A DNA stretch of 64,000 nucleotides from Patescibacteria group bacterium (GTDB lineage: Bacteria > Patescibacteriota > Minisyncoccia > Phycocordibacterales > SIBU01). Of the stretch, positions 3,180-21,177 are shown in pieces (position 1 is the first letter of the stretch; every line of letters begins with the position of its first letter). The position numbers and the translations under genes are program-made. The stretch covers positions 579 to 64,578 of the forward strand of contig JAZJZC010000004.1 of assembly GCA_040390045.1 (NCBI GenBank), written 5' to 3'. The notes below the pieces were generated by a model. That model was not told the origin of the DNA. It made no database searches and was given only the letters and a program-made list of their open reading frames with translations.

Positions 3180-3482
3180 ATGTTTTTTGGTATATTTGGT
3201 TGGGGAAAGAAATCCAGGAGATGGCCAATTGGCGAGGGTAAAGAACTCGTTGCGACATGGTCTTATTTTTCGCTAAATTTCGTGGCTCTTGCGTGGGCGA
3301 TACATTGGTACGTGATTGGAGAAAATCGTTCGGAAGACCGAGAGGTCACATACGACGAAGTTAAAGCACTTTTCCCTCAAAATACGCCGCATCTTACTAG
3401 CCTGGAACAATACGGCCTTTGGTGGGTAATCGGTGCTACCGCCTTACTTGTTATCTACGCTTTTGCAAATCGACAGTGGTAA
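3180..3482 (+). CDS. hypothetical small membrane protein
   Basis: ORF of 100 aa with two hydrophobic segments. Confidence 0.4.
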   Translation: MFFGIFGWGKKSRRWPIGEGKELVATWSYFSLNFVALAWAIHWYVIGENRSEDREVTYDEVKALFPQNTPHLTSLEQYGLWWVIGATALLVIYAFANRQW

Positions 3483-3509
3483 TTTGCGAAAAGTGTCTGG
3501 ATTTAAATT

Positions 3510-3935
3510 ATGACCGAAAAAACAATTCTAACTCCTGAGCTTAAAGTTTTTGATTTTAATGCCAGTTTGGATTTTTACACCAAACTTGTAGGATTTGAGG
3601 TGCTGTACGATCGACCGGAAGAAAATTTTGCTATGCTCGGTATAAACGGAGCTCGCATTATGATCGAAGCCCTAACTCCAAAAAGTCGCACATGGAAAGT
3701 GGGGAATTTAGAAAGGCCACTCGGTCGTGGCATGCATTTTCAGATAGAAGTACCAGATGTTCAAGTGTTGTATCAAAACTTCAAAAATGCTGGTTGGCCA
3801 ATTTTCTTTGAAATGGAAGAAAAATGGTATCGGATGAATGATCGGGAACTTGGTAATAAACAATTTTTAGTGCAGGACCCCGATGGATATTTGTTAAGAT
3901 TTTTTCAGGATTTGGGTAGCAAGCCAATTAAATAA
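3510..3935 (+). CDS. VOC family protein (glyoxalase/bleomycin-resistance fold)
   Basis: 141 aa. The VOC-like pattern FDFNASLDFYTKLVGFEV...MHFQIEV...DPDGYLL is present. Confidence 0.6.
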   Translation: MTEKTILTPELKVFDFNASLDFYTKLVGFEVLYDRPEENFAMLGINGARIMIEALTPKSRTWKVGNLERPLGRGMHFQIEVPDVQVLYQNFKNAGWPIFFEMEEKWYRMNDRELGNKQFLVQDPDGYLLRFFQDLGSKPIK

Positions 3936-3938
3936 TTT

Positions 3939-4580
3939 ATGACTAGTTGGTACCAAAAAAATATTGTTCCTCGTTTGCTCAATTTTGAAATGGGCGGAGA
4001 TGATTTGGAAAAGATCCGCCGTGTAGTTTTAGAGAAAGTAAAAGGCGCGGTTTTAGAAATTGGTGTGGGGCCGGGCTACAATTTTGCATTGTATAAAAAT
4101 ATTTCAAAATTATTTGCCCTCGAACCTTCGAAAGAACTTATCGAGATTGCCAAAACCCGTCTTGGTTCAACGTCATTTCCTATTGAATTTTTAAATACAG
4201 GAGCGGAACATATTCCACTGCCGGATCACTCTGTCGATACAGTAGTATCAACATGGACACTTTGTAGTGTTTCAGATCCTAGAAAGGTGTTGAGTGAAAT
4301 CAAACGCGTACTTCGCCCCAGCGGTAGTTTTATTTTTGTTGATCACGGAGCTTCACCTAATTTTTTAATTCGAATGATTCAAACTGCCTCAACATTTTTT
4401 ACTAAATATTTTACGGGCAATTGTCACTACGATCGACAACTTGAGAAATTGATTAGAGGAGCCGGTTTTGATATTAAGAAAATTGAGCACCCACGCGAGG
4501 GCTTTAAACTTTTGATTTATAATTTTCAAGGTGTTGCTATTCCAGTAAATTTGGAAACTAAGTTTCCAAATTTAATTTAA
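3939..4580 (+). CDS. class I SAM-dependent methyltransferase
   Basis: Motif I (VLEIGVGPGYN) and post-I/II motifs (VDTVVSTWTL...VLRPSGSFIFVDH) are present. Confidence 0.7.
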   Translation: MTSWYQKNIVPRLLNFEMGGDDLEKIRRVVLEKVKGAVLEIGVGPGYNFALYKNISKLFALEPSKELIEIAKTRLGSTSFPIEFLNTGAEHIPLPDHSVDTVVSTWTLCSVSDPRKVLSEIKRVLRPSGSFIFVDHGASPNFLIRMIQTASTFFTKYFTGNCHYDRQLEKLIRGAGFDIKKIEHPREGFKLLIYNFQGVAIPVNLETKFPNLI

Positions 4581-4583
4581 AAC

Positions 4584-5151
4584 ATGAGCCAAAATATCAG
4601 AAATGAAATTTTAGAGATTGTGCGAAAAATTAAGCCGTACGATGAAATTGAACGCGTGCATATTGCTGATGCAATTTCGTGGATACAGAGTGGCGCTGAA
4701 ATATTTCGGATACAAAAACCCGATATTCCGGCGAAACATTTAGTTTCTTATTTTGTTTTGGTTGATCCTAAAAAGCAAAAAATACTTTTTAGTCGATCAT
4801 ATTAAAGCGCAACTGTGGCTTCCGGCCGGTGGACATGTGGAATTGAATGAGCATCCGAGAGTGACCGTTCAAAGAGAAATTATCGAGGAGCTTAATATCG
4901 AAGCTAAATTTTTGGTCGTGGACGTTTTCTTTTTGACTCAAACTGTCACTGTCGGGCTAACTGCGGGACACACAGATGTTAGTTTGTGGTATGTTCTTGA
5001 AGCAGATTCAACTCAAACTCTCCAATATGATCCACGAGAATTTAATGGGTATAAGTGGTTTAGTTATGACGAAATAGTACAAACGCCACTCAAAAAATTA
5101 GACCCGAATCTTCATCGGTTTGTTAGAAAATGGATGAATATCAATTCCTAG
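4584..5151 (+). pseudogene. NUDIX hydrolase interrupted by a +1 frameshift
   Basis: ORF 4584-4805 (frame 0) and ORF 4753-5151 (frame +1) together reconstitute a Nudix protein. The Nudix box GGHVELNEHPRVTVQREIIEELNI is in the second ORF. The shift lies in the A-run near 4776-4800. Confidence 0.55.
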
Positions 5152-5181: not shown

Positions 5182-5305
5182 GAATTACAAAACCCCTCAA
5201 TCAACCCTTCTCTGTCCTTCCCGCGAAAGCGGGAATCCAGATTTCTCCCTTCAGTCCTAGATCCCCGCTTTCGCGGGGATGACACGTGAGAGGGTTTCGT
5301 AATTC
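5182..5305. terminator. 124 bp near-perfect palindrome between convergent genes (bidirectional terminator candidate)
   Basis: Outer arms are gaattacaaaacccctc and gagagggtttcgtaattc. Inner complementary hairpins are cccgcgaaagcggg and ccccgctttcgcgggg. Confidence 0.5.
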
Positions 5306-5320
5306 AAAGTAGCAAGAATC

Positions 5321-7216
5321 TCACTTTTGATCAGGAGTCTCAAGCATTTTCAAAAGCTCAGAAGTTTTAGCGGTTGCTACGCCGACAACTAAATCTGCCG
5401 CACCGTAGTAGAAAAATAACGTATCACCGCGCTCAATCACTCCACAGGGGAAAACTACGCCGGGCACGATACCTTTCCATTCATAATCTTCAACTGGTTC
5501 AAAAATCGGAAAGACGGAACGGGCGAGCACCACTGTCGGATCATTTTTATCTAGAAGAGCTACTCCGACTCGGTAATGTGTGGTGTTTGAGACACCGTGA
5601 TAAAAGAATAACCAACCTTTTTTAGTTTCAACTGGTGGACAGGCCAGGCCAATTCTGCCGCCATCCCACATGCCGCGACGAGGGTGGAGGAGTGGAATAC
5701 AGGTACGTACTGGTTCATTTTTCCAATCGAGAGAATCGACAAAGTCGGCGCAGATCAAATCATCAATACGGTGAATAATCATGTACTTGCCATTTATTTT
5801 TTTCGGGAGAATACAGGCATCTTTGTTGCCCACGGAAGCAAAGGTGATGAGACTTGGCGTTGACCAATTCCACTCGCCGTTTTGCAAATCTTTGACCGAG
5901 ATAGATGTACCGGCAACGCGAGGCGTGTTGCCATCGTACGCGGTGTAGAAAACATGAACACGATCTTTGATGAGTGTGGCGCGTGGGTCTTCACAACCCT
6001 TACTTTCAAAATCAACACGCGGAGTATAAATAGGTTTTTCTGATCGTTCGTCAATTGAAAAACCATCAAGCGACGTGGCGAGGCCGAAAGTTGAAATGTT
6101 GTCGCTCGAAACTGCGCGATAAAAAATATAAATTTTACCGTCAATTTCTACTGAGGCCGGATTAAATGTACCACGAGTTTCAAAGGCTTTATCGGGGCGG
6201 GGACTGATGATCGGATTATTTGGTCCGCGAACAAAAAGTGGCTTTTTCTCTACCATTGAGGCGAGGAATTTTTTTAAGTTGACGCGGGCGATGCAGGAGT
6301 GAGTATCAGCCGCACCGTAATAGATTTCTAAATTTTCGTCGGAAATTATGGCGCCGGTTGGGAAAATAATGTTTGGCACTTGCCCGACGCGTTCGTAATA
6401 TTCTTCAGGCACCAAAAATGAACCCTTGGTTCTGCCAATGATAAGACGCGGATTGTTTTTGTCCAAAAGTAGGGCTTCCACACCAAAACTTCGGTCACCT
6501 TGAAAATAATTTTGAATATGAGAGTACACCACAAGCCAGCCGAGCGACGTCAGAATGGGCGGCGCGCCGAGTTCCACTTGTTCGTTATTTCCGCGACGAA
6601 CGTTTAGGGTATGAAGAGAAATATCTCTTTTCCATTTCTCCCAAAACTCGGGATTCCACATGTCAGATTCTTTTTCGAATTCAACGTAGCAGATTTCAGA
6701 CGGCGGTTCGTCGGTGCGAATGGTAAGGAGTGCTGCGAATTTACCACCAATCTTTTTTGGAAACAGCGCCATGGCTTTGGCGTTAAAGGGAGTAATGGAA
6801 TGTTTCTCCATAATTTCCATTTTCTCGTTGACTTTGGCGAGAGCAATACGAATACCGTCTTTTTGAACGGGGTACATTGAAAGTGCGGTATAAAAAATAT
6901 AGTGAATTTTGTTGAAGGTAGTTACTCGAGCATCTTCACAACCGAATTTTTCCCACTCATGTTCGGGAGTGATGAATTCTTGACGATTGTCGAAATGCTG
7001 ACCGTCAGAACTTTGCGCCAGCCCGATCGTCGACACTGAACGTCTCACTCCGTCTTGCAGTTTCGATTCAGATTGCGCGCGATACACAGCGGCTGTTACG
7101 GGAGATTTTCCAACTGGAGGAATTGGACACCAATTAAAACTGCCAGCGGATTCCCATTCGTGGTGAACTTCGGGGGAGAGGATTGGATTGTGTTTATCGC
7201 GTTCAATTACAAACAT
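5321..7216 (-). CDS. glycoside hydrolase family 130 protein (glycoside phosphorylase-like), tandem two-domain
   Basis: Two GH130 repeats, each with NP(I/L)LSP, GCEDPR/GCEDAR and YYGAAD motifs. 631 aa. Confidence 0.7.
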   Translation of the reverse strand: MFVIERDKHNPILSPEVHHEWESAGSFNWCPIPPVGKSPVTAAVYRAQSESKLQDGVRRSVSTIGLAQSSDGQHFDNRQEFITPEHEWEKFGCEDARVTTFNKIHYIFYTALSMYPVQKDGIRIALAKVNEKMEIMEKHSITPFNAKAMALFPKKIGGKFAALLTIRTDEPPSEICYVEFEKESDMWNPEFWEKWKRDISLHTLNVRRGNNEQVELGAPPILTSLGWLVVYSHIQNYFQGDRSFGVEALLLDKNNPRLIIGRTKGSFLVPEEYYERVGQVPNIIFPTGAIISDENLEIYYGAADTHSCIARVNLKKFLASMVEKKPLFVRGPNNPIISPRPDKAFETRGTFNPASVEIDGKIYIFYRAVSSDNISTFGLATSLDGFSIDERSEKPIYTPRVDFESKGCEDPRATLIKDRVHVFYTAYDGNTPRVAGTSISVKDLQNGEWNWSTPSLITFASVGNKDACILPKKINGKYMIIHRIDDLICADFVDSLDWKNEPVRTCIPLLHPRRGMWDGGRIGLACPPVETKKGWLFFYHGVSNTTHYRVGVALLDKNDPTVVLARSVFPIFEPVEDYEWKGIVPGVVFPCGVIERGDTLFFYYGAADLVVGVATAKTSELLKMLETPDQK

Positions 7217-16778: not shown

Positions 16779-17567
16779 TTACTTATTTTTCGGAGTGATG
16801 GCCTCTGTGACCTTCCTCACATCTTCGATCGACTTCGAAAGTTTTTCGCTTGGCGTTAGCCTAGCGTCAGCCTTCGCCTGTGCCAAATCCCTCTTGGCAT
16901 CAGCGATTTTTTCGGTGGTGTCGAGTGGCACGAGCACTTGGCCTCGAGCGTCGCGCGAAACAGCGAAGTAGATCTCCTCCTGTCTGTCGCCGTCTGACGC
17001 CAGAGTGAAAAGTTGACCCACTACCGGTTCATGTCCCACCCAATTTCGAACCGGGATCGACTTCAACCATTTGCCAGTTCGAAAAATGTACTCCCCTCCG
17101 TTTTGATCTGAGGAAGCTCGGAGCATTTTTCCAAGGCATTCAAATGGATCACGGAAACAGTAGGCAAAGTTCCCATTGACCAAGGCGATTTTCTGGTAGA
17201 ACTCGCGGTACTGTTGCGCCAACACGAGCCACGGTTCTTCTCCATTTTGAAGTCCCTTTTTGGATTCGGCAAGCGACCAATGCCAAATAGTTGCTTTACC
17301 CTCTGCTTTGTCTACGGTATCTATCCGCAGTTCAACTGGGCTAGTGTTTGTATTCGCAAACGAAGCAACAAGGTGATAGTCCGTGATCTCAAGTGACCAC
17401 ACCATTACCAAAATGTCTGCTACCCCCAGTTTACCTGAGATGAACTGGGTGAATGTCGGCGCGTTGGTGATGAGGGTTTGGGGTTGAACGGCGGGGGATT
17501 CCTGGGCGAAAAGCACCGAGGCAATGGTCATGAAAATGATGGCCACGAGTGAACTAAGAGTTTTCAT
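16779..17567 (-). CDS. secreted hypothetical protein, paralog B
   Basis: Tandem duplicate of 15792-16565. The terminators (cctcgcgcggacgcgagg) and the 130 bp upstream regions are also duplicated. Confidence 0.6.
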   Translation of the reverse strand: MKTLSSLVAIIFMTIASVLFAQESPAVQPQTLITNAPTFTQFISGKLGVADILVMVWSLEITDYHLVASFANTNTSPVELRIDTVDKAEGKATIWHWSLAESKKGLQNGEEPWLVLAQQYREFYQKIALVNGNFAYCFRDPFECLGKMLRASSDQNGGEYIFRTGKWLKSIPVRNWVGHEPVVGQLFTLASDGDRQEEIYFAVSRDARGQVLVPLDTTEKIADAKRDLAQAKADARLTPSEKLSKSIEDVRKVTEAITPKNK

Positions 17568-17857
17568 CGATGTAAATGTTCCGAGTGCCTTTTAACGGGA
17601 TCATGGAGCGAGAAGCCCATTCTTGCAAACAGCTACAAGAATTTTTCATGTTTCCGAACAGTCAGGTAAACTATTCTCGGCGCATTATAAATTATAAATT
17701 ACAAAATGTCAATTTATTGTAAAGAGAAAGCCGCCGCCCGTGAGGGCGGCGGCTTTCATGTGCTTTGTGTCTATAAGCCGAATTCTGTCCTTCGCTTGCG
17801 CGAATGGATAGTTATTTATCTGGGCCGCACATTGCTGTGTGGCTCAAGCGGCACTCG

Positions 17858-18527
17858 CCAATTTTGCCCACCACAGGTGGCGCAAAATTGAGCGTCCTGA
17901 GATTCGCCCTAATTAAGGCGAGCGAAGGGTCTTGACCCCTCGATTACTCGGGACGCTCAATTTTTCAGCTGCCTATGGCAGGAAAAATTGGCGCACGGCC
18001 TTGCACCCAGGTAAGGATTTTGTCGTTGCACTTCTCGTATTACTACGGAACTCGCCCCGACGTAAATCGGGGCGCTCCAAGGCTTTCGCGTCGGAGCGTC
18101 TCTGTTCGCACCTCTATCCTTGCGCCTGCCCGACTGAACGAGTCAGTCGTTCGGGCGGGGACGGCGGGCGTTACCTCCCGATGCCTTTCGGATCGGGATC
18201 CCGAATCCGCAAAGCGGACATCGGGACGCTACCATTCTCCCACGCACCTCGCTTCCACTCGGTGCGGAGTTCATCAAGTTGAAAGTTTCAAGTTTATAAA
18301 GTGAAGAGGAATTCTTACTTTAAAACTTTATAACTTTATGAACTTGTAACTGCATCGAACGAAAGTGAGATGCGCGGGGAGTGTTCGGACTTTCCTCGCC
18401 AATTTTGCCCACTAGAGATCGTTTTTCATAAACTCTGATTTTACAAAATTGGGCTGCCCTTCGATTTGCATAGGAGAGCAAATCTCAGGACGCTCAATTT
18501 TGCAACCACCTCCGGTGGGCAAAATTG
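17858..18527. repeat. 670 nt GC-rich, ORF-free structured element closed by a perfect 45 bp inverted repeat
   Basis: 17858-17900 (cgccaattttgcccacc-acag-gtggcgcaaaattgagcgtcctgag) is the exact reverse complement partner of 18481-18527. Sub-motifs (gacgctcaatttt, caaaattggcg) recur internally at 17951-17995 and 18401-18420. The interior is about 60% GC against an AT-rich background, with many local hairpins. Confidence 0.6.
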
Positions 18528-18699
18528 GCGCAACTATCCAACACAAAGCTCGAAAATTATACCACATCAAATGATTAAATCAATAGGGGATAGCTACCTT
18601 AAAAATTCACCAGAGTTTGTTAACAGCGCCATTGATATTGAGGTCTCAGTTTACTATAATTAGAAGGAACAATTTATTCGCCATAATTATTAAATTCCT

Positions 18700-21177
18700 A
18701 TGCAGAATGAAGCTATTGATACAGAAGAAAAAGAAATTGAGTCTTCAAAATCCTCGTATGGATTTTTGGAAAAAATTTCTTTCTCGCTAGTGTTTATCCT
18801 GCCACTCCTCGTTCCTCTATTTTTTATGTCGACTAATGTTCTTCCGTTTCAGTTTGCCAAGATGCTGGTATTTTCAATTGTAATTGCCGTCGCGTTTGTA
18901 TGTTGGATTCTTTCCAGATTAAAAGATGGTACATTTATTTTTCCAGCAAATCTCATTACTCTTGGAGCTGCCTTAGTCCTCTTGGTGTCAACCATTTCCG
19001 CTTTTTTTTCAGGTTCAATTGGTTGGTCATTGGCTGGCCAGTCATTTGAACTCGGCACTGTTGCATCGCTTGCAGTTTTGTTTCTGCTCTTCCTGTTAGT
19101 CTCAATTTATCTTCGGAAAAAAGAGAATATTTTTTATGCCTATTCACTTTTTCTCGGATCGTTTCTCGTTATTGCTGTTTTTGAACTTTTGAGATTAATT
19201 TTTGGACCAAGTTTCTTGTCGTTCGGAGTATTTAATGATGTCATTACAAGCACCCTTGGTAAGTGGAATGATCTCGGTATCTTTTTTGGAACCGCCTCAG
19301 TCCTAGCACTCATCACCCTCGAACTCATCTCTCTCAGCAAGATTTTCAGAGTATTTGCCTATATCGTGCTGACTAGTTCACTCTTCTTTTTGGCGGTTAT
19401 CAACCTCAATGTCGTCTGGTACATTTTGGCGGTCTTCAGTCTTAGTTTCTTGGTGTATGTTATTTCATTTGAGAAAAAGGAAGGTGGCTCGATTTTGGCG
19501 GACACTTCTGAAAAAACTTCAAAAGTTAAAAGAATACCAAACGCTTCTCTGGTTGTTTTGATCATCTCTCTAGTGTTCATTGGCGACTCCTTGCTTACAC
19601 GGGTTGATCCGGCCACAGGAGTTTCGCATACATTCATTAGCGAAAAAATTTCAAACTTCTTCAACATCAGTCAGTTTGAGGTTCGACCATCGTGGGCCGC
19701 TACCTATTCAGTTTCAAAAAGCGCTCTCGCGGTCAATCCATTGCTTGGCTCCGGTCCCAACAAATTTTCAAAAGATTGGGCAAGCTTTAAACCTGACGGC
19801 ATCAATTCATCAATTTTCTGGAATACCGATTTTGATTATGCTGTAGGTCTTGTGCCAACCATGATGATTTCCACCGGAATCCTCGGCAGTATTTCTTGGC
19901 TCTTGTTTTTTGGAGTATTTCTCTACTGGGGTTTTCGCGCTCTTTTTTCTACGAGTAGTAACAAGATATCTCGCTACCTCTCCGTATCTTCCTTCTTAGT
20001 GTCTTTGTTTTTGTGGATTATCAACATCTTTTATGTTCCAGGCCTCTCGATCGTGGCGCTCACGTTTTTCTTTACCGGACTTTTCGTTTCTTCCCTCTAT
20101 CAGAGCGGATTAATGAAGCCGAAGGTTTTGTCATTCACTGAAGATCCAAAGAAAGGTTTCATTTCTGTTCTTCTTCTTATCATTCTTTTGGTTTGCACTA
20201 TTACATTCTCGTACGCTCTTCTTGAAAAGACTATTGCAACTCTTAATTATCAAAAAAGTATTGTTGCCTTTAACTCTCAAGGAGATCTCGATAAGGCGGA
20301 AGTCTATCTACAAAAGGCAGCATCAGTCGACGGCTTGGCGCTCTACTATAGAACCCTTGCTCAAATTGATATTGCTCGAATGTCTACCTTGCTTTCTCAG
20401 GATGTTAGTGCTGTTTCGACTGATGTTTTGCAGACAAAGTTTCAGGGGTATTTGACTAACGCTTTGAACAACGCTCAACAAGCGATCAAGATTGATCCAA
20501 GCGATTATCAAAACATCATCACACTTGGAAAAGTCTACGAAACGGTTGTTCCGCTGAAAATTGCTGGAGCTTATGAAAATGCTCAGGCCGCATACAAGCA
20601 AGCGCTCGTGCTTAATCCAAAAAATCCTTCGATCAATTTGTTCTTGGCTCAATTGGAAGTTGTTCATGCCAATAATAAAGGAGCAAAGGATTACATCGCC
20701 GAAGCTCTTAAGCAAAAAAATAATTACACCGAAGCTATTTTCCTACTTGCTCAAATCCAAGTTTCCGAAGGTGATATAAAAAATGCCATCACTTCAGTAC
20801 AAGCCGCATCATATCTTTCACCGAGTGATAGTGGGTTACTCTTCCAGTTAGGATTTTTACGCTACAACGTCAAGGATTACGCAGGAGCAGCCACAGCTCT
20901 TGAACAGGCGATTGCAATCAATTCCAATTACGCCAACGCTCAGTACTTCTTGGGCTTGAGTTACTATCATTTGGACAAAGTCCCGGAAGCCATCGCTCAG
21001 TTTAAAGCCTTGAAGATTACTAACCCTGATAACAAAGAGATCGATCTGATTCTTAAAAATCTCAGCGCCGGAAAAGATCCCTTTGCCAACGCCACGCCAC
21101 CGATAGACAGTAAGCCTGAAAAACGATCGACACTTCCAGTCACTGAAAAAGCTCCGGCTGACGAAGCAGCTAACTAG
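18700..21177 (+). CDS. polytopic membrane protein (O-antigen ligase/Wzy-like) with C-terminal TPR repeats
   Basis: The N-terminal 480 aa contain at least 10 TM helices. The C-terminal 330 aa carry TPR-like repeats (YYRTLAQI..., AQYFLGLSYYHLDKVPEAIAQF). Confidence 0.5.
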   Translation: MQNEAIDTEEKEIESSKSSYGFLEKISFSLVFILPLLVPLFFMSTNVLPFQFAKMLVFSIVIAVAFVCWILSRLKDGTFIFPANLITLGAALVLLVSTISAFFSGSIGWSLAGQSFELGTVASLAVLFLLFLLVSIYLRKKENIFYAYSLFLGSFLVIAVFELLRLIFGPSFLSFGVFNDVITSTLGKWNDLGIFFGTASVLALITLELISLSKIFRVFAYIVLTSSLFFLAVINLNVVWYILAVFSLSFLVYVISFEKKEGGSILADTSEKTSKVKRIPNASLVVLIISLVFIGDSLLTRVDPATGVSHTFISEKISNFFNISQFEVRPSWAATYSVSKSALAVNPLLGSGPNKFSKDWASFKPDGINSSIFWNTDFDYAVGLVPTMMISTGILGSISWLLFFGVFLYWGFRALFSTSSNKISRYLSVSSFLVSLFLWIINIFYVPGLSIVALTFFFTGLFVSSLYQSGLMKPKVLSFTEDPKKGFISVLLLIILLVCTITFSYALLEKTIATLNYQKSIVAFNSQGDLDKAEVYLQKAASVDGLALYYRTLAQIDIARMSTLLSQDVSAVSTDVLQTKFQGYLTNALNNAQQAIKIDPSDYQNIITLGKVYETVVPLKIAGAYENAQAAYKQALVLNPKNPSINLFLAQLEVVHANNKGAKDYIAEALKQKNNYTEAIFLLAQIQVSEGDIKNAITSVQAASYLSPSDSGLLFQLGFLRYNVKDYAGAATALEQAIAINSNYANAQYFLGLSYYHLDKVPEAIAQFKALKITNPDNKEIDLILKNLSAGKDPFANATPPIDSKPEKRSTLPVTEKAPADEAAN

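Follow-up and report, generated by a model that had tools for sequence, protein, structure and literature searches.

The RNase P RNA gene of the window

A 64,000-nucleotide (nt) stretch of DNA from a Patescibacteria group bacterium (GenBank assembly GCA_040390045.1, contig JAZJZC010000004.1), hereafter called the window, contains a 1.13-kb gap between two open reading frames (ORFs), one at 16779-17567 on the minus strand and the other at 18700-21177 on the plus strand. The gap is occupied by rnpB, the gene for the RNA of ribonuclease P (RNase P). The core of this gene is intact and its surplus length consists of palindromic inserts situated at peripheral helices. We consider it highly probable (about 85%) that the locus is rnpB, coding for the tRNA-processing ribozyme, of a bacterium of the candidate phyla radiation (CPR, Patescibacteria), in which peripheral hairpins have been replaced by dispersed palindromic repeats. 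Coordinates are positions in the window, features of rnpB are read on the minus strand, and labels such as L128 or L240 denote related or element-bearing contigs retrieved from sequence collections.

Rfam 15 was run over the whole window at gathering threshold and over 17560-18720 at E-values up to 10. At gathering thresholds tRNAs alone were reported in the whole window and rnpB itself was left unflagged. In the E-value mode, family RF00010 (bacterial RNase P RNA, class A) matches 18068-17758 on the minus strand with 51.8 bits (E 8.8e-15), the alignment to the model's 3' third being almost perfect. An earlier note, made from the sequence of this DNA, had suggested a large structured non-coding RNA (ncRNA) in the size class of OLE, GOLLD and ROOL and had recommended a search with Rfam and Infernal. 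Such a search does find a structured RNA, on the minus strand, in the form of the already known RF00010 molecule. A new RNA of the proposed class is not what lies here, as the OLE, GOLLD and ROOL covariance models gave no match in the whole window at gathering threshold, nor at 17560-18720 with E up to 10.

Seven related rnpB genes from metagenomes, 66-70% identical to the window gene in the shared columns of the alignment, score 53-113 bits with RF00010. One of them (L128), bearing the same element at helices P15-17, reaches 113 bits and thus exceeds the gathering score of 100. The eight whole genes were aligned by MAFFT, which misplaces P15, P18 and the 3' strand of P2 where the sites of elements differ; covariation is therefore readable for P1, P4 and P5 only. 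The window gene is composed of the following parts, given in the direction of transcription:

18556-18583 (-): predicted sigma-70-type promoter (TTGATT, 16-nt spacer, TGnTATAAT), with 10 of 12 matches and an extended -10 TG; P1 begins about 7 nt downstream
17758-18549 (-): rnpB of class-A type, about 792 nt, recognized by the RF00010 match and the readable core; predicted 5' end from the promoter, predicted 3' end from P1 and the terminator
18541-18549 (-): 5' strand of P1, GCUUUGUGU, perfectly paired with 17762-17770
18532-18539 (-): 5' strand of P2, GGAUAGUU, paired with AACUAUCC at 17806-17813
18397-18530 (-): palindromic double-hairpin element, copy 1, in place of P3 (covariance model, fold energy, short P3 in L128 and L240)
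18386-18397 (-): 5' strand of P4, GAGGAAAGUCCG, with the universally conserved bulged U at 18389; invariant in 8 of 8 aligned genes
18239-18379 (-): hairpin about 141 nt long, AT-rich at its tip, inserted between P5 and P7; second palindrome family
18176-18226 (-): branched insert of about 51 nt within the 5' strand of P8 (GCG / insert / GGUAACGCCCG); window-specific in the alignment
18128-18156 (-): small palindrome GCCCGAACGACUGACUCGUUCAGUCGGGC beside P9; third repeat family, window-specific in the alignment
18096-18114 (-): P10/11 and J11/12 core, GAGGUGCGAACAGAGACGC; near-invariant block of the alignment
17999-18020 (-): AAAUCCUUAC, comprising the 3' strand of P5 (GGGUG) and J5/15 (CAAGG); invariant columns
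17856-17993 (-): copy 2 of the palindromic double-hairpin element, substituting for the P16/17 hairpin of P15 (covariance model, fold energy)
17825-17842 (-): P18 with GCAA tetraloop (Rfam alignment and sequence)
17806-17813 (-): 3' strand of P2, AACUAUCC, preceded by the conserved J18/2, AGAUAAAU
17791-17804 (-): P19-like small hairpin UUCGC-GCAA-GCGAA between the 3' strands of P2 and P4; element-free
17774-17788 (-): 3' strand of P4, ACAGAAUUCGGCUUA; invariant in 8 of 8 aligned genes
17762-17770 (-): 3' strand of P1, ACACAAAGC, paired with 18541-18549
17726-17757 (-): predicted intrinsic terminator, a perfect 14-bp GC-rich stem (found by repeat search) followed by UUCUCUUU

The 5' and 3' ends of the RNA are closed in class-A manner by P1 (9 bp) and P2 (8 bp), all of whose pairs are Watson-Crick. 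P4 shows the class-A pairing of GAGGAAAGUCC and ACAGAAnnCGGCUUA with U18389 bulged, in a register that was checked by hand. The P7/P8 motif GGUAGCG...GGUAACGCCCG and, at 18020-17997, the string AAAUCCUUAC...GGGUGCAAGGCC are readable on the minus strand. P1 is accompanied by compensatory changes in L199, L232 and L234, and a CG pair of P5 is exchanged for UA in L233 and L193. From the peripheral set of class A, P18 with its GCAA loop is present, P13/P14-like hairpins are discernible by eye and P16/17 is replaced by the repeat element. As all core elements are present and unbroken, the RNA would most likely be a working tRNA 5'-processing ribozyme. A sigma-70-type promoter of its own probably drives its transcription, which would stop at the hairpin 17757-17726. 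The latter is the strong nearby hairpin to which the earlier note had drawn attention; the terminator scan lists its stem for the plus strand only, the T-run on the minus strand having been read by eye.

Several observations weigh against this identification. The score of 51.8 bits stays below the RF00010 gathering score of 100; the helices of the S domain, the P13/P14-like hairpins included, were assigned by eye, with no fitted model; and the GGU/UGG loop of P15, which binds the CCA end of tRNA, is unrecognisable between the element and the 3' strand of P15 (GGCG-AG-UGCC). The low score results from about 400 nt of inserts. CPR RNase P RNAs have been described as diverged class-A molecules found by sub-threshold searches only, with the UGG motif missing in 23 of 35, that is in two thirds (Lui et al. 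2021, PMC8172020). The Rfam scan at gathering threshold revealed no second RNase P RNA in the 64-kb window, which also encodes LepA and ValS. Two more near-consensus sigma-70-type promoters flank rnpB, at 17684-17712 (-) with 12 of 12 matches and at 18632-18660 (+) with 11 of 12, and face the neighbouring protein genes; together with that of rnpB they would place three transcription starts in the intergenic gap.

Palindromic inserts and the double-hairpin element

With about 792 nt, the window rnpB is about twice as long as usual (about 350-400 nt), because at least five of its peripheral positions carry palindromic inserts that fold as self-contained helices. Five blocks of the window gene (18530-18397, 18379-18239, 18226-18176, 18156-18128 and 17993-17856) are missing from some or all of the seven aligned relatives. 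L128 and L240 have a short ordinary P3 where the window has copy 1, and carry the same element at P15-17, where the window has copy 2. At the latter site, L193, L199 and L234 carry a hairpin of about 11-26 nt between identical flanks, GGCCGYG...AGUGCC. The two window copies are flanked by GUUG and AGGAAAG and by CCGUG and AGUGCC, respectively; where a site is empty, these sequences enclose the native hairpin. The inserts would project from the ribozyme as extra helices.

The remaining three inserts have relatives of their own. The hairpin at 18239-18379 (-45.9 kcal/mol, z = -6.8), in place of which 7 of 7 relatives have a hairpin of about 15-45 nt, recurs with 75-79% identity at another rnpB site, P15-17, in L144 (2293-2384). 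The 18176-18226 insert is 92% identical over 52 nt to a segment of rnpB in L198, and the palindrome at 18128-18156 (CCGCCCGAACGACUG..CAGUCGGGCGG) is 92% identical to two tandem in-frame copies at L197 596-688, in a gene read as leuS. Since relatives of these inserts are located elsewhere, several independent palindrome families use the same permissive rnpB sites. AT-rich palindromes of ATAAAGTT-like repeats sit at different rnpB helices in different lineages (window 18239-18379, L144, L171), and L171 has an identical perfect AT-rich palindrome twice in one rnpB, at two sites.

Copies 1 and 2 belong to an element of about 135 nt, which is formed by two inverted copies of a conserved 44-nt hairpin around a short central stem. 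The hairpin consists of CGCCAAUUUUG, a tip stem-loop and CAAAAUUG-A-GCG with a bulged A, and is followed by UCC. Its covariance model (R1) was built from 47 metagenomic copies, and 7 of its 17 pairs show covariation. In copy 1, the 5' hairpin (18531-18488, minus strand) matches the model with 69.2 bits (E 2.7e-15, search of the window), the central hairpin is GAUUUGC..GCAAAUC, and the 3' hairpin (18454-18398) is degenerate and matches weakly. In copy 2, the 5' hairpin (17994-17951, minus strand) scores 65.9 bits and the inverted 3' hairpin (17855-17897, plus strand) 60.6 bits, while the central stem GUCCCGAG/CUCAGGAC encloses two small hairpins.

Taken in isolation, both copies (copy 1, -69.5 kcal/mol, z = -9.3; copy 2, -80.9 kcal/mol, z = -10.1) fold best as one long near-perfect rod of about 60 bp. 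Positions that differ between the two hairpins of one element are paired within the hairpin in 89% of cases and in the rod in 6.5%, a count to which the fitting of the alignment to the hairpin model lends some bias. Since pairing is kept within hairpins and not along the rod, the comparison points to two hairpins and a central stem as the conserved shape, whether at the level of RNA or of hairpin or cruciform DNA.

No family described in Rfam fits the repeat module; matches to microRNAs, countertranscribed RNAs and small RNAs are weak hits to palindromes. A K-turn or box C/D-like motif (CUGA, UGAGC) was considered and rejected, CUGA being unconserved between copies. Integron attC sites and IS200/IS605 ends were dismissed likewise: the R-box and target-tetranucleotide signatures are missing, the hairpins are inverted and not direct, and there is no integrase or TnpA gene nearby. 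Hairpin tips and second hairpins of many copies (for example in L159, L175 and L160) contain mini-hairpins of GCGAAGC/GCGTAAGC type and symmetric GAA/GAA or tandem G·A internal loops. Such mini-hairpins and G·A loops make unusually stable hairpins in single-stranded DNA and RNA.

The composition of the two copies accounts for the 670-nt element closed by a perfect 45-bp terminal inverted repeat (TIR) that had been proposed for this region. Copy 1 begins with a hairpin that is inverted relative to the one with which copy 2 ends; most of the ribozyme lies between these two, hence the apparent TIR around 670 nt. Copy 1 corresponds to the supposed right-hand TIR and the sub-motif at 18401, copy 2 to the left-hand TIR and the sub-motif at 17951-17995. 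The ends (17856-17904 and 18481-18530) are indeed reverse complements, yet not exact ones (46 of 50 positions, 92%, blastn E 4.6e-11); the 3-nt loop of the hairpin reads ACA in one copy and GGA in the other, a bulge has a 1-nt indel, and a repeat search reports two arms, of 29 nt (93%) and of 25 nt (92%). The internal copies of sub-motifs were seen correctly: 17947-17995 is 80% identical to 18484-18532, and 18395-18417 is 91% identical to 17854-17876. In the 64-kb window, CGCCAATTTTGCCCAC has 4 matches against 0.64 expected from shuffled sequences and GGACGCTCAATTTT has 3 exact matches, more than by chance, all of them at the rnpB locus. The GC-rich interior, which belongs to the specificity domain of the RNA, was likewise borne out (0.58-0.60 at 18000-18300 against about 0.42 around), as was its lack of a credible ORF. 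The mechanical ORFs of 116, 109, 53 and 65 amino acids (aa) have no Pfam match, and explanation by a degraded ORF does not apply. As a single unit bounded by a TIR, the 670-nt span does not stand, each of its ends being the outer hairpin of a different element of about 135 nt, with the RNase P core between. The supposed likeness to transposable elements of the miniature inverted-repeat type (MITEs) survives for the sub-motifs, which are palindromic elements of a family dispersed in CPR, and not for the span as one element. A target-site duplication, which had been suggested as a check, is found neither outside the 670-nt span nor outside either individual element.

The repeat family in other genomes and its GIY-YIG neighbours

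The repeat family is dispersed in CPR genomes, where it occupies different helices of rnpB in different lineages and occurs also in protein-coding genes. A gapped 23-base pattern for the hairpin matches at least 120 metagenome contigs from groundwater and sediment, many of them groundwater by contig name. Among the matches listed, at least 59 of 112 distinct contexts are inside rnpB, on its sense strand (20 at P19, 19 at J5/7, 10 at P3, 4 at P15-17 and 6 in the 3' domain with no helix assigned), and about ten more are at other S-domain positions of the gene, which makes five or more peripheral sites in all; the exact-match search favours conserved, selected copies and so biases these proportions, which has to be held against our interpretation. 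The same pattern had no matches in a viral contig collection and there is therefore no sign of a phage vector. A scan of a genome collection (596 Gb) with the 14-mer GGACGCTCAATTTT returned at least 120 loci, nearly all of them chance matches; the informative ones were L079, L087, L089 and L090.

Filled sites are combined in various ways: P3 and P15-17 in the window, P3 and P19 in L233 and L193, P3 and J5/7 in L204, P3, J5/7 and P19 in L205, and P15-17 alone in L128 and L240. The P19 site is filled in about 20 other rnpB genes and free in that of the window. In these element-bearing rnpB genes, the 5' and 3' strands of P4 are about 300 to 834 nt apart; in E. coli the distance is about 290 nt. 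It had been anticipated that many copies would speak for a MITE and a single syntenic copy with covariation for an ncRNA. Both outcomes occur at once, because the elements reside inside an ncRNA gene.

Outside rnpB a shorter form occurs, made of the hairpin and a second hairpin with tandem G·A pairs, and this form directly abuts 3' ends of tRNAs. With tRNA-Ser(GCU) and tRNA-Asp, the first bases of the element, GCCA, serve as discriminator and CCA (L207 778-781, L214 5471-5474, L175 4518-4521), and with tRNA-Cys and tRNA-Gln the element begins right after the last tRNA base. In L212 (126-479), a group I intron (58 bits), apparently within a tRNA gene, has a complete double-hairpin element in a peripheral helix, on the sense strand; a reading of this locus as transfer-messenger RNA was rejected in favour of the intron. 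L136 has a copy in a 16S-tRNA spacer, and an alternative reading of it as an antisense element in a tiny rnpB was abandoned, the GAGGAAAGTC match being a chance hairpin in that spacer.

Further copies are antisense upstream of various genes, including one read as pilin. Others lie in frame in dnaX (L160, sense), trmD (L139 2213-2950, antisense) and a GT2 glycosyltransferase gene (L087, L184, L186, antisense). The trmD copy is a clean 27-aa insertion in comparison with solved TrmD structures. In-frame insertions tolerated in conserved proteins, as known from Rickettsia palindromic elements (RPEs), are thus present in other CPR contigs, outside the window. When read antisense, the element yields a recurring peptide, ...DAQFS...EKIGEY...

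Genes of small GIY-YIG nucleases (PF01541) recur next to the elements. The hairpin lies about 0-50 nt from the start codon of intact GIY-YIG genes (L135 411-735, L153 9873-10211), in sense orientation in L135 and antisense in L153, and is found beside truncated ones (L159 about 3934-4515, also L183 and L226; L132 about 5200-5353). In L135, a 16-codon N-terminal GIY-YIG fragment is situated just upstream of the element. Loci totalling about 0.85 Mb contain nine distinct GIY-YIG ORFs, and six of these are no more than about 50 nt from a hairpin, where a rough estimate would expect about 5% by chance. In three related lineages, an intact GIY-YIG ORF (about 85 aa) with an inverted repeat closing it is nested in P3 of rnpB itself:

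L126, 5648-5933, sense: nested GIY-YIG region (PF01541)
L142, about 4770-5045, sense: nested GIY-YIG region (PF01541)
L192, about 1500-1790, sense: nested GIY-YIG region (PF01541), grouped with that of L142
L166, about 3410-3690, sense: nested GIY-YIG region (PF01541)

L126 has in addition, at P15-17 (6210-6310), an ORF-less copy with identical 14-nt termini, and this geometry of P3 and P15-17 copies matches the arrangement in the window. The window encodes no GIY-YIG protein in its 64 kb, and no DDE transposase or REP-associated tyrosine transposase (RAYT; REP, repetitive extragenic palindromic sequence) is present near the elements. A literature search brought up no earlier case of a bacterial RNase P RNA gene that harbours a protein gene.

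Origin of the elements and comparison with known systems

We propose that the elements are probably selfish hairpin-forming DNA of the kind of RPEs, MITEs and double-hairpin elements. They would persist in rnpB because an autonomous helix can stand in for a peripheral hairpin and leave the catalytic core untouched. Adjacency of genes in related loci suggests that GIY-YIG nucleases might mobilise them: a small nuclease would cut hairpin or cruciform DNA and copy-repair would then spread the element. On this basis one may, tentatively and with considerable doubt, imagine a CPR mobile system tied to small GIY-YIG nucleases and targeting hairpins of structured RNAs, with ORF-bearing members (about 85 aa) as its autonomous forms and double-hairpin elements, among them the two of the window, as non-autonomous derivatives. 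Native helices would give way to such derivatives in RNase P RNA, tRNA trailers and group I introns, and protein genes, too, would receive them in frame. Were this so, much of the "expansion" of CPR RNase P RNA would be a fossil record, perhaps later re-used, of hairpin-for-hairpin replacement.

A selfish origin has to face a number of contrary facts. The copies of the window are confined to rnpB, the rest of its 64 kb giving at most 22 bits with the covariance model. No target-site duplication of the kind expected from MITEs accompanies them, and the native hairpin is exactly replaced, not split. About 60% of exact-pattern matches listed fall in this one small gene, where the hairpin closest to the consensus is nearly always the 5' one of the sense strand; among the matches listed, the consensus hairpin lies on that strand in about 70 of 71 cases. 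Exact replacement, missing duplications, sense bias and concentration in rnpB fit selection at the level of RNA at least as well as random transposition, and, together with the association with tRNA 3' ends, they keep alive the rival view that the module is a functional RNA domain. It would then serve as an expansion segment specific to the lineage, for binding a protein or docking RNA, selected in RNase P RNA and tRNA precursors, perhaps linking enzyme to substrates, with copies in coding genes as accidental spill-over. Conservation of the bulges (A, N-U) and of the triloop A while the tip stem covaries, GCCA serving as discriminator and CCA of tRNA-Ser and tRNA-Asp, the sense-strand module in a group I intron and the maintenance of identical rnpB sites in several relatives all agree with it. 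We nevertheless hold it to be unlikely. Coding genes contain the module in both orientations and three reading frames, it lies antisense upstream of the gene read as pilin and of others, and an RNA-binding role cannot fit the hairpins at GIY-YIG genes, which are sense in L135 and antisense in L153. Close rnpB relatives do without the module at any given site, and unrelated palindrome families at the same sites suggest permissive positions, not a specific function.

Selfish origin leaves room for different fates of the RNA, and inserts might be intervening sequences cut from the transcript, for example by RNase III, so that the pieces of RNase P RNA are held together by P1, P2 and P4. A near-perfect rod of about 60 bp, as favoured by the isolated elements, is a typical RNase III substrate. 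All inserts are at hairpin positions, where cutting spares the core pairings, and inserts that are excised have reportedly been described for CPR rRNA genes by Brown and co-workers in 2015. The comparison between copies speaks for two separate hairpins and not for the rod, and the 3' hairpin usually has changes that give rod mismatches, as if a long duplex were avoided; excision is rather improbable. Still harder to accept would be a dead rnpB riddled with insertions, with the functional RNase P RNA, or else a protein-only RNase P, encoded elsewhere. Five insertions in one gene, a score well under the threshold and the unrecognisable CCA-binding loop would suit such a pseudogene, against which stand universal core motifs, promoter and terminator, all intact, the restriction of inserts to peripheral positions, pairings kept by compensatory changes in relatives of the same architecture, and the lack of another RNase P RNA in the window; oversized forms are, moreover, the norm in complete CPR genomes (PMC8172020). 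Size, GC-rich structured interior and inverted ends were reasons to see here either a giant new ncRNA or a single 670-nt non-autonomous transposon. Taken literally, these two proposals are refuted by the RF00010 match, which is the sole meaningful one in Rfam, the alignment and the covariance-model hits: the interior is RNase P RNA, the gene runs past both supposed ends, to 18549 and 17758, each end belongs to a complete element with its own partner hairpin, and target-site duplication is absent. We retain the reading of the locus as a palindrome-loaded, probably working rnpB.

This reading has practical and evolutionary consequences. An essential gene is missed by standard annotation since it reaches half of the Rfam threshold; knowing its extra 400 nt or so as repeat modules at predictable helices makes it possible to detect and fold CPR RNase P RNAs and helps not to declare the gene absent. 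A universal ribozyme gene would serve as a landing pad for several palindrome families that cleanly replace its peripheral helices, and small GIY-YIG nucleases become candidates for the mobilising activity. If the modules are retained and functional in the RNA, they would represent expansion segments built from mobile DNA.

Among known nonautonomous elements, MITEs and the paired REP sequences known as bacterial interspersed mosaic elements (BIMEs) or REPINs are similar in being short and non-coding, with terminal inverted repeats, an imperfect palindrome with a bulge and a paired inverted unit; each CPR element ends in inverted copies of the 44-nt hairpin. Two copies are in rnpB of the 64-kb window, the family extends over many genomes and contexts, and a GIY-YIG gene is adjacent in other genomes. 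Differences consist in the missing target-site duplication, the missing DDE or RAYT transposase nearby, occurrence that is not extragenic only and substitution of a native hairpin. Homing-endonuclease genes sit in peripheral loops of group I introns, and inserts are known in CPR rRNA genes. The nested GIY-YIG ORFs of L126, L142/L192 and L166 resemble them, being located in peripheral P3 of a catalytic RNA gene with an ORF-less derivative at another helix, whereas the host here is RNase P RNA and the window has ORF-less palindromes alone.

Double-hairpin elements of Allomyces mitochondria are reported to lie between genes, within ORFs and within the variable parts of structural-RNA genes. Some relatives have them and others do not, from which their mobility was deduced (Paquin, Laforest and Lang 2000, as cited in PMC7218506). 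They share with the CPR element the small size, two hairpins and optional presence among relatives, and differ as organellar, eukaryotic elements with no sequence relationship. RPEs measure about 100-150 bp, inhabit a reduced genome, have no transposase of their own and are inserted in frame in conserved genes, with which they are translated (PMC10969869). Palindromic nature, size, lack of transposase and in-frame insertion are common to both, and the insertions in DnaX, TrmD and the gene read as LeuRS would form a counterpart of RPEs in another reduced-genome lineage. The CPR element is of a different sequence family and host phylum, is a double hairpin with conserved bulges, is strongly concentrated in rnpB, tRNA trailers and a group I intron, and adjoins GIY-YIG genes. 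A literature search gave no paper on the hairpin motif, on palindromic elements of CPR or Patescibacteria, or on their link to GIY-YIG nucleases.

With class A RNase P RNA (RF00010) the window RNA shares the P1/P2 closure, the P4 pseudoknot (GAGGAAAGUCC, ACAGAAnnCGGCUUA, bulged U), P8 with UAAC loop, the J11/12 core, P12, P13/P14-like hairpins as assigned by eye, P15, P18 with GNRA loop and J18/2 (AGAUAAAU). It departs from that class in its length of about 792 nt, in repeat elements of about 135 nt in place of P3 and P16/17, in inserts between P5 and P7, in P8 and beside P9, in having no recognisable GGU loop, and in its 51.8 bits against 100. The closest published counterparts are CPR RNase P RNAs with "Large extensions of helices", including an extended P15, in a text that leaves repeats, palindromes and mobile elements unmentioned (Lui et al. 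2021, PMC8172020). Host group, class A, sub-threshold score and helix extensions are the same in the window RNA, in which the UGG motif is likewise unrecognisable. Oversized CPR RNase P RNAs are already published and the gene as such is an ordinary one; of interest are its repeat-built architecture and the repeat family: the extensions of the window gene are copies of dispersed palindromic repeats, inserted at helices that differ by lineage.

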